64,000 bases of DNA from Parcubacteria group bacterium GW2011_GWA1_40_21 (GCA_000996205.1 LBYO01000001.1:3077-67076), one strand, 5' to 3'. Positions 8,841-8,870 are shown, counted from the first letter of the stretch. Notes: generated by a model not told the origin, from the letters alone. Program-made: numbers and translations.

Positions 8841-8870
8841 TTCCCGATGTTCATCGGGATGTTCTACCGA
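8841..8870. repeat. 30-bp direct repeat ccttcccgatgttcatcgggatgttctacc (copy 1) containing 18-bp palindrome tcccgatgttcatcggga
   Basis: Exact repeat at 9227-9256; the two copies bracket the GIY-YIG gene + tRNA-Ala. Confidence 0.8.

Follow-up and report, generated by a model that had tools for sequence, protein, structure and literature searches.

Hairpin-substituted tRNA copies beside a minimal GIY-YIG nuclease gene in Patescibacteria

What places one 18-bp palindrome at both ends of a small unit of nuclease and tRNA genes, and again inside a 16S rRNA intron and beyond a tRNA-Ile gene? The question arises in a 64,000-nucleotide (nt) stretch of the genome of Parcubacteria group bacterium GW2011_GWA1_40_21 (GCA_000996205.1, LBYO01000001.1:3077-67076), analysed here as a whole and termed the window, in which the palindrome, TCCCGATGWWCATCGGGA, accompanies a gene for an 87-residue GIY-YIG nuclease and the tRNA-Ala(GGC) gene that overlaps it. 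An earlier note on this DNA had proposed a shared recognition or recombination site, perhaps cut by the GIY-YIG or LAGLIDADG enzymes and marking the edges of insertions. The answer that we favour on balance, with moderate confidence, is that very small mobile cassettes living in Patescibacteria tRNA genes have the palindrome as their signature hairpin. Such a cassette consists of a GIY-YIG gene of Slx1/UPF0213 type, encoding about 85 residues, placed head-to-tail with an intact tRNA gene. Truncated versions of that tRNA surround the pair, and in them the hairpin stands in for the 17-nt anticodon arm (nt 27-43) and, in some cases, for the T arm; hairpin type and nuclease clade are distributed together.

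The tRNA-Ala unit and its two palindromes

A pattern search of the window retrieved three exact matches to the palindrome, at 8842-8859, 9230-9247 and 18761-18778, where the expectation from 100 dinucleotide-preserving shuffles is zero; a chance or low-complexity artefact is ruled out by these shuffles. A mismatch-tolerant search of the window added a degenerate copy, TCCCGAAGAACATCGGGG, at 21657-21674, with 2 mismatches. The first two copies have TT at their centre on the plus strand, reading GAAC in the minus-strand tRNA sense, and the third has AA. A looser search for CCCGAT...ATCGGG within 90 nt found 6 pairs against 0.33 expected and brought in hairpins at 18846-18885 and 18886-18912 (both in the 16S intron) and 21692-21759 (downstream of tRNA-Ile), so that the family comprises four exact or near-exact 18-mers and three related hairpins. 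All seven lie in non-coding tRNA or rRNA-operon sequence, and none in the approximately 55 kb of protein-coding sequence.

The first two copies belong to a unit on the minus strand (9311-8787), in which a promoter, a 5' pseudo-copy of the tRNA (psi5'), the GIY-YIG open reading frame (ORF), the intact tRNA-Ala(GGC), a spacer, a 3' pseudo-copy (psi3') and a terminator-like hairpin follow one another:

9284-9311, minus strand: promoter-like TTGAAA-16-TATACT (10/12 matches), 12 nt upstream of psi5'
9227-9272, minus strand: psi5', a truncated tRNA-Ala consisting of nt 1-26 GGGCCTATAGTTCAGTGGTAGAACA (acceptor 5' strand and D arm), the palindrome, and AGG (nt 44-46)
9230-9247, symmetric: palindrome copy 1, TCCCGATGAACATCGGGA in the sense orientation, 17 nt upstream of the GIY-YIG start codon
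8949-9212, minus strand: GIY-YIG nuclease ORF of 87 residues (MTWIYILQSE...VIKMGL), minimal Slx1/UPF0213 type
8886-8958, minus strand: intact tRNA-Ala(GGC) (ARAGORN; Rfam tRNA, 58.3 bits)
8869-8885, minus strand: 17-nt spacer GAGCAAAGTTTATTTTC between the intact tRNA and psi3'
8810-8868, minus strand: psi3', a truncated tRNA-Ala consisting of the D-stem 3' strand GGTAGAACA (nt 18-26), the palindrome, and nt 44-76
8842-8859, symmetric: palindrome copy 2, within psi3'
8787-8805, minus strand: GC-rich hairpin GCCCCGCGCAGAGCGGGGC directly after the encoded CCA, without a T run and so missed by a simple terminator scan

Both palindromes occupy the position of the 17-nt anticodon arm in the truncated tRNA-Ala copies. 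At the two ends of the unit lies a 33-nt direct repeat of 97% identity (8836-8868 and 9224-9256), which is a tRNA segment made up of D-stem strand, palindrome and variable loop; the exact matches that the earlier note had reported at the ends of the GIY-YIG/tRNA cassette are confirmed, each within this repeat and within a truncated tRNA-Ala copy. A linker of 14 nt separates psi5' from the ORF, the last 10 nt of which are nt 1-10 of the intact tRNA and supply the final codons and the TAG stop. In psi3' the palindrome is followed by the variable loop, T arm, acceptor 3' strand and an encoded CCA. Promoter, encoded CCA and terminator-like hairpin all belong to the outer copies, whose D arm is canonical. 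The intact tRNA-Ala(GGC) has an unusual D arm (GTAAAATGGTATTAC; stem A/U-rich), an unusual T loop (TCCGATT) with C in place of the near-universal U55, and an incompletely encoded CCA that lacks its final A; near-identical tRNAs with the same D arm stand beside related nucleases in L120, L133, L138 and L225 (L numbers denote loci and contigs from the scans described below), with flanking pseudo-copies that have other D arms. For annotators, such loci hold one real tRNA and several decoys. An attempt to read the pseudo-copies of the window as real tRNAs with an expanded 8-nt anticodon loop was rejected, both being truncated and neither being called by ARAGORN or Rfam.

The TTGAAA-16-TATACT element is the sole candidate promoter for the whole unit, and TTGAAAAAAG...TATACT is also found upstream of the 5' pseudo-copy in L120, L121, L225 and L228; the hairpin at 8787-8805 is the probable end of the transcription unit. 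The terminator scan flags palindrome copy 1 owing to the T-rich AGGTTGTTGT after it; copy 2, and copies at other loci, are followed by an AGGTC-type variable loop. Within 8780-9300 Rfam finds tRNA only and no ribozyme, and ORF and Pfam scans of the unit find the GIY-YIG ORF and the tRNA as its contents and no tyrosine or serine recombinase. Elsewhere in the window, 23S helix 26-43 (TCCCGACGAAAGTCGGGA) fits the formula of the hairpin family and was considered as a swapped arm, but the large-subunit rRNA model aligns it as an ordinary 7-bp stem with a tetraloop, and the likeness is probably coincidence.

The nuclease matches the Pfam GIY-YIG domain (PF01541, E=4.6e-15, residues 12-81). A profile built from the window protein and five relatives retrieved from PDB the entries 1zg2 (6e-12), 1ywl (6e-11), SLX1 (4e-5) and I-TevI (2e-4), and residues Y5, Y16, G18, R26, H30, N31 and E62 are invariant in the alignment (A1), the catalytic Tyr, Tyr, Arg, His and Glu among them. 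The NCBIfam model for group I intron endonucleases scores 23 bits, under its 56-bit cut-off, and the 87 residues hold a single Pfam domain, an auxiliary DNA-binding module (NUMOD, helix-turn-helix or zinc finger) being absent. Judged by its sequence, the protein belongs to the Slx1/UPF0213 branch rather than the homing-endonuclease/UvrC branch. It is a member of the 'minimal' prokaryotic Slx1-like group described by Dunin-Horkawicz et al. (PMC1564403), who reported prokaryotic Slx1-like GIY-YIG domains in fusions or operons with the tRNA methyltransferases TrmH and COG4123. A search of the six-frame translation with a family hidden Markov model found the gene to be the only copy of its kind in the window, with no degenerate second nuclease gene near the 16S intron or the tRNA-Ile duplicate.

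Recurrence of the arrangement and solo copies of the hairpin

A metagenome scan with the nuclease protein confirmed 505 relatives in contigs, and the locus counts given here refer to the best 80. The arrangement is shared by many uncultivated bacteria. An intact tRNA on the same strand directly adjoins the nuclease gene in 64 of the 80 loci, after the ORF in 43, where it usually overlaps the stop codon, and before it in 21; extra partial copies of the adjoining tRNA are present in 48. With the hairpin defined as [T/C]CCCG-N4-12-CGGG[A/G], 43/80 loci have one beside the nuclease gene, against 9 hairpins in 167.5 kb of distant sequence from the same contigs (>600 nt from the gene). When hairpin flanks were matched to the neighbouring tRNA, exact replacement of nt 27-43 was seen in 43 of 60 hairpins and replacement of the T arm in five. 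Arm replacement spans seven tRNA species (tRNA-Ala, Val, Thr, Asp, Pro, Gln and Ile), and the species occupied number at least 15, a diversity that implies movement.

The architecture of psi5' is shared with L014, L087, L120-L144, L225 and L228, and spacers of 15-17 nt separate the corresponding parts in L014, L093 and L035. A genome scan with the palindrome itself recovered the same layout at L014, L087 and L097, all from Patescibacteria (tRNA-Pro(CGG), tRNA-Ala(UGC) and tRNA-Ala(GGC)), together with nuclease-less remnants adjoining tRNA-Val, Gln, Ile and Arg (L093, L035, L050 and L118). Psi3' forms tandem arrays of 2 units in L121, at least 3 in L130/L131 and 5 in L225; hairpins are also inserted in the D loops and T loops of pseudo-copies, or nested (L123, L124, L130, L144, L163, L178); and L128 has a full-length tRNA-like gene with the hairpin, in which ARAGORN reads a four-base anticodon, 'gtac'. 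Neither the surroundings of the cassette nor those of solo hairpins in Patescibacteria loci yielded a group I intron or, apart from tRNA, another known RNA family, and we found no paper reporting the palindrome sequence or hairpin-substituted pseudo-tRNAs beside UPF0213 genes. In L226 (821-1096) and L225 (about 1600-1800) a second, different GIY-YIG/T5orf172 gene lies head-to-tail against tRNA-Arg(CCU), directly upstream of the tRNA-Ala cassette, and upstream of it is a pseudo-tRNA-Arg full of other hairpins; cassettes therefore cluster.

Comparison of these loci separated constant from variable parts of the hairpin. All members of the family share the stem base TCCCG/CGGGA; the two pairs that follow it set the hairpin type (AT, AC, AG, CC or CT), and the centre varies in sequence and in length (2-5 nt); the form belonging to the nuclease clade of the window is TCCCGATG-NN-CATCGGGA. 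Relatives of at least about 44% identity have almost all the AT (CCCGAT) type, whether the tRNA is Ala, Gly or Val. In public metagenomes and genomes a truncated version of the adjoining tRNA, ahead of their start codon, almost always contains CCCGAT-NNNN-ATCGGG at a distance of 28-45 nt, and the hairpin often recurs downstream; the palindrome is thus tied to the GIY-YIG gene, as part of what the earlier note had suggested. More distant nucleases have the CC, AG, AC or CT types, even with the same tRNA species. Since type follows nuclease clade more than tRNA species, the hairpin appears to travel with the nuclease gene and not to derive from the local tRNA. Relative to transcription the central bases are found either way round (GAAC/GTTC, GGAC/GTCC), and the left-hand hairpin of L121 and of L225 is the exact reverse complement of the right-hand one. 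Two contigs of the same population differ by 1 base in 1549, at the hairpin centre; a hypermutable centre was considered and set aside, this single anecdotal event (L226 vs L227 and L225) being too few.

The remaining copies in the window stand in and beyond other stable-RNA genes:

18752-19420, plus strand: group I intron in the 16S gene (Rfam Intron_gpI, 50.9 bits at 19115-19332)
18761-18778, symmetric: palindrome copy 3, nt 10-27 of the intron and 9 nt inside it
18846-18912, plus strand: two further family hairpins in the 16S intron (18846-18885 and 18886-18912)
19140-19193, plus strand: tRNA 3' fragment in the 16S intron, TAGAACA, quasi-palindrome, T arm GGGTTCGATTCCC, then GTTGCCTCCACCA
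21446-21626, plus strand: tRNA-Ile(GAT) (21446-21520), 49-nt spacer, and exact 57-nt 3' duplicate (21570-21626)
21657-21759, plus strand: degenerate palindrome (21657-21674) and nested family hairpin CCCGATGG...CCATCGGCGGG (21692-21759)

The intron is inserted after the U equivalent to E. coli U793, its 5' exon ending ...GATTAGAT and its own 3' end being G. The earlier note had placed the third copy at 18762-18779, one nucleotide too far along, and had made it the first 10 nt of the intron; the exact copy exists, but it is not at the boundary. In the RNA fold the exon segment UAGAU pairs with AUGUCU at about 18829 and the palindrome is left as its own hairpin (z = -5.75), predicted to be a side hairpin within an extended P1 loop. 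Of the two further hairpins the first reads TCCCGATTTTG...CAAAATCGAGGA with an inner hairpin, and the second TCCCGAT-aagcgtaagcga-CATCGGGA. The fragment at 19140-19193, with its D-stem strand, quasi-palindrome, T arm, acceptor strand and CCA, has a psi3'-like layout with a different hairpin; the Rfam alignment of the intron shows it as an insertion, and it gives weak matches of tmRNA type. The tRNA-Ile duplicate retains a true anticodon arm and an encoded CCA. A degenerate copy is present beyond it, as had been noted, but not directly after it: the duplicate ends at 21626, a terminator-like hairpin intervenes, and the copy starts 31 nt downstream. Neither site is thus the insertion edge that it had been taken for, one copy lying in a predicted peripheral intron hairpin and the other beyond a terminator. 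We read both as solo hairpins, each in a dispensable stem-loop of a stable-RNA gene under heavy transcription.

The palindrome also occurs outside Patescibacteria. In the genome scan, figures for which refer to the matches listed (at least 120, with 119 loci examined for the nuclease), 83/120 have a perfect GTAC-centred form, mostly from Planctomycetota and Bacteroidota and often several per genome, with several copies per metagenome-assembled genome and an intergenic bias in Pirellulales, Sedimentisphaerales and Prolixibacteraceae. Long stop-to-stop ORFs contain 36% of the GTAC-form matches, compared with 84% of random positions. A nuclease relative lies within 8 kb in only 5/119 loci, all five with Patescibacteria-type cassettes. 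Frequent occurrence away from insertions, which the earlier note had named as telling against its proposal, was in part what this intergenic repeat of Planctomycetota and Bacteroidota revealed. A hairpin pair 394 nt apart in L004 (Pirellulales) was considered as a cassette and rejected, having no nuclease gene between its members. A phage or plasmid origin was likewise set aside: 14 hairpin matches in viral contigs included none in a tRNA or nuclease context, and the nuclease gave no protein matches in phage or plasmid records. In Kerfeldbacteria and relatives (L002:632, L070:4231, L082:6509) the 18-mer is central to a repeat of about 70 nt, GAAGCCTCCACGGGCTCATCCAGCCTTC-palindrome-CTACTGGCGGAGTAGGCCGCCCGAGG, that has no Rfam match.

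A proposed mobile cassette weighed against its alternatives

In the mobile cassette that we favour, the outer truncated copies would be the remains of the resident tRNA-Ala gene, which we infer because they carry the canonical D arm, promoter, CCA and terminator-like hairpin; the invader would be the nuclease gene with its own tRNA-Ala(GGC), keeping the cell supplied with that tRNA. The nuclease would recognise stem-loop or cloverleaf DNA at tRNA genes and not a long sequence. Recognition of structure is probable because the protein lacks a DNA-binding domain and the nearest relatives of solved structure are structure-specific, and such recognition would explain the breadth of tRNA species occupied. 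Eukaryotic Slx1 cuts branched and stem-loop DNA by structure. Break repair would then copy the cassette into the target. The hairpin would be a cis element travelling with the nuclease gene, most likely a stem-loop that the nuclease binds or cuts at its base or centre; centre lengths of 2-5 nt in related hairpins argue against a rigid duplex arrangement of half-sites and would fit recognition of a stem-loop or junction better. A constant stem base near the junction with a free tip or loop appears to be the constraint expected of a junction-reading enzyme, not of a duplex dimer with fixed spacing. By blanking the anticodon of leftover copies, and by interrupting a direct repeat that would otherwise delete the cassette, the hairpin may in both ways favour persistence of the cassette. 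That arms are exchanged exactly for a conserved hairpin suggests a nuclease responsive both to the shape of DNA and to a short stem sequence. If this account is true, the large orphan family of Slx1-like (UPF0213) proteins in bacteria gains a role, that of driving tiny selfish cassettes at home in tRNA genes, and an explanation is at hand for partial duplicates of tRNAs and for the odd 'tRNAs', read with four-base anticodons, that are annotated in ultra-small bacteria.

Several observations weigh against this account. Relatedness of the hosts confounds the correlation of nuclease clade with hairpin type; the hairpin pattern lies within 130 nt of the start codon in only 33 of the 75 loci with enough upstream sequence; and centres of 2-5 nt are hard to square with a fixed dimeric duplex site. 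The intact tRNA in the cassette would stay a target if the enzyme recognised ordinary tRNA genes. The GTAC-centred 18-mer is abundant in Planctomycetota and Bacteroidota, mostly intergenic and away from nuclease relatives, and tRNA-like flanks are rare there. A search by way of the neighbouring phosphoribosyltransferase gene found no empty, uninvaded allele, and insertion and its boundaries are for that reason read only from internal repeats; L214, alone among the contigs found in being syntenic, is identical to the window, and other phosphoribosyltransferase homologues are in different neighbourhoods. Identity of L214 to the window is 100% from 11600 down to about 8135, where sharp divergence sets in within the phosphoribosyltransferase gene at the contig end, reflecting either strain variation or an assembly join.

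Among known systems the cassette is nearest to free-standing, homing-endonuclease-like cassettes at tRNA genes, yet it lacks defining features of each of the nearest systems. Phage T4 SegB (PMC2330249) resembles it as an intron-free GIY-YIG gene lying amid or next to tRNA genes; such genes presumably spread when a break is mended by copying gene and flanks together. SegB-type enzymes, however, have a C-terminal DNA-binding region and belong to the homing-endonuclease/UvrC branch, whereas the window protein is a bare 87-residue Slx1/UPF0213 domain, and the window gene overlaps an intact tRNA, is flanked by arm-substituted pseudo-tRNAs and has no relative in phage or plasmid records. Slx1 and the bacterial UPF0213 proteins (YhbQ, BH0048, EF2693; PMC1564403; 1zg2, 1ywl) offer the best sequence match, the minimal size and the catalytic residues; bacterial members of UPF0213 are without established function, and we did not find them described as mobile, associated with tRNA genes or partnered with a hairpin. 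Group I introns in Patescibacteria tRNA genes (PMC13011429) share the phylum and the use of tRNA genes as a home for selfish elements, but no ribozyme lies at 8780-9300 and the tRNA is duplicated, not spliced; unlike intron-encoded enzymes of the I-TevI type, the window ORF is not embedded in a group I ribozyme. Islands and prophages with tyrosine integrases are similar in that a resident tRNA is split, element-borne tRNA sequence keeps its function and a partial copy forms a direct repeat. Integrative elements that target tRNA genes favour the symmetric anticodon arm for crossover. The window element, in contrast, has no integrase, spans less than 0.5 kb, and has, in place of shared anticodon arms in its leftover copies, a foreign conserved hairpin.

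The strongest competing explanation, which we nevertheless hold to be rather unlikely, is that the hairpin is an autonomous, very small palindromic repeat copied by some other, possibly trans-acting, activity, its link to the nuclease being indirect; accumulation in pseudo-tRNAs, intron loops and spacers would merely reflect tolerated insertions, as for REP/REPIN-like elements or the cyanobacterial repeats of 21-27 nt. Such a repeat would suit the predominance of the perfect GTAC form (83/120 of the matches listed) in phyla with no nuclease relative nearby and its intergenic bias, the nested hairpins and those in D and T loops of pseudo-tRNAs, the solo copies in the 16S intron and spacer, and the Kerfeldbacteria repeat of about 70 nt with its central hairpin. 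The distribution of the GTAC form is the main reason for retaining this alternative. Set against it are the strong enrichment of hairpins beside the nuclease gene within the same contigs, the tracking of nuclease clade by hairpin type across tRNA species, and exact arm replacement (17 nt for 16-20 nt), which generic insertion does not predict. Very small dispersed repeats of cyanobacteria were reportedly described by Elhai et al. in 2008. Like these and the REP/REPIN-RAYT elements (PMC3116915), the hairpin is a short, dispersed palindrome, found mostly between genes and at times nested, whose movement presumably depends on a protein encoded elsewhere; REPs, however, are lineage-specific and depend on a Y1 (HUH) transposase, whereas the 18-mer is common to several phyla and sits at cloverleaf positions by a GIY-YIG gene in Patescibacteria. 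No GTAG/CGTC tag flanks the 18-mer, and the Pfam scan of neighbouring ORFs showed no RAYT gene.

An extension of the mobile-cassette account would be a mobile element of a kind not yet described: a bare, Slx1-like nuclease would act by structure on stem-loops in DNA, and its cis site would be a sequence-defined hairpin (base TCCCG/CGGGA) swapped into the arms of tRNA copies and other dispensable stem-loops, so that the 18-mer itself moves ('arm swapping'), with the cassette as its autonomous form and the solo GTAC copies as non-autonomous relatives. We regard this fuller version as unlikely; there is a modest chance that its hairpin-swapping aspect is new in kind.

Less likely again is a function in RNA, in which a stable 7-bp stem with a tetraloop would keep the pseudo-tRNA folded with its anticodon (elsewhere its T loop) removed, giving the nuclease mRNA a tRNA-like leader and trailer that serve processing, stability, decoy or nuclease inhibition without decoding, with tandem arrays akin to the repeated RNA antitoxins of type III toxin-antitoxin systems. 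In its favour, one promoter ahead of psi5' and a terminator-like hairpin behind psi3' imply that the unit is transcribed as one RNA; helices are kept at cloverleaf positions and loops destroyed; psi3' is amplified to 2, at least 3 or 5 units; the ORF stop codon lies inside the tRNA, so that processing by RNase P would compete with translation; and related GIY-YIG domains are fused to tRNA methyltransferases (PMC1564403). Yet the stem sequence itself is conserved, not only its pairing, with no compensatory changes seen, and many centres have 2 nt, allowing no RNA loop unless the stem opens. The central bases occur in both orientations relative to transcription, most pseudo-copies have no second acceptor strand and are unable to fold as tRNA, and GIY-YIG enzymes are DNases as far as established.

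Read literally, the earlier note would have a single homing site, cut by GIY-YIG or LAGLIDADG enzymes and marking insertion edges, that serves the tRNA cassette as well as the 16S intron and the duplicate of tRNA-Ile. Homodimeric LAGLIDADG enzymes and GIY-YIG restriction enzymes use palindromic sites, and the exact 18-mer occurs in three places rich in mobile elements, but this reading is very improbable; a link to the LAGLIDADG enzymes finds no support, and the positions of the copies already go most of the way to refuting a shared homing site. The copy in the 16S gene stands within the intron, 9 nt from the exon junction, where a side hairpin is predicted; the tRNA-Ile copy is 31 nt past the duplicate, no copy lies at any of the three LAGLIDADG ORFs, at an intron-exon junction or near the other two group I cores, and the site is intact on both sides of an insertion that should destroy it.

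Other features of the window

The rRNA genes follow an unusual order on one strand, with a partial 23S (1-2596), a 5S about 3 kb later (5581-5688), and the 16S about 12 kb further on (17880-20239) followed by tRNA-Ile, so that the 16S is not upstream of the 23S here. Three LAGLIDADG ORFs (2621-3226, 4277-4768 and 20045-20947) and at least three group I cores (19115-19332, 20969-21138 and about 3330-3360) sharing a GGTGAAGATATAGTCC segment lie in or beside the rRNA genes, with no palindrome near the junctions of either.

Between 23S and 5S, at 5470-5544, ARAGORN calls a tRNA-Ile(aat) with G at position 33 that scores under the Rfam tRNA gathering score and is probably another pseudo-tRNA or tRNA-like element. 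A tRNA-Ile with anticodon UAU (26490-26564, 75.5 bits) occurs in addition to tRNA-Ile(GAU) at 21446, which suggests decoding of AUA without the usual lysidine tRNA.

Several further repeats were recorded. Heptamer arrays of CCTACAA/CCTAAAA type lie just upstream of ORF starts (5901-5943, 10634-10701, 13917-13970 and 23692-23719), and word-like repeats resembling them flank solo palindromes in Planctomycetota contigs. A 74-nt unit with its own small palindrome, TTTTGGACATCCGATGTCCAAAA, is perfectly duplicated in tandem at 12288-12435. Repeats of 70-109 nt resembling miniature inverted-repeat transposable elements, 81-90% complementary and internally palindromic, are found at 5707-5815 (directly after the 5S), 48355-48463 and 52754-52889, and a 151-nt repeat occurs at 27148-27298 and 30837-30987 with 91% identity, its 50-nt core being present three times, including 27956-28005.

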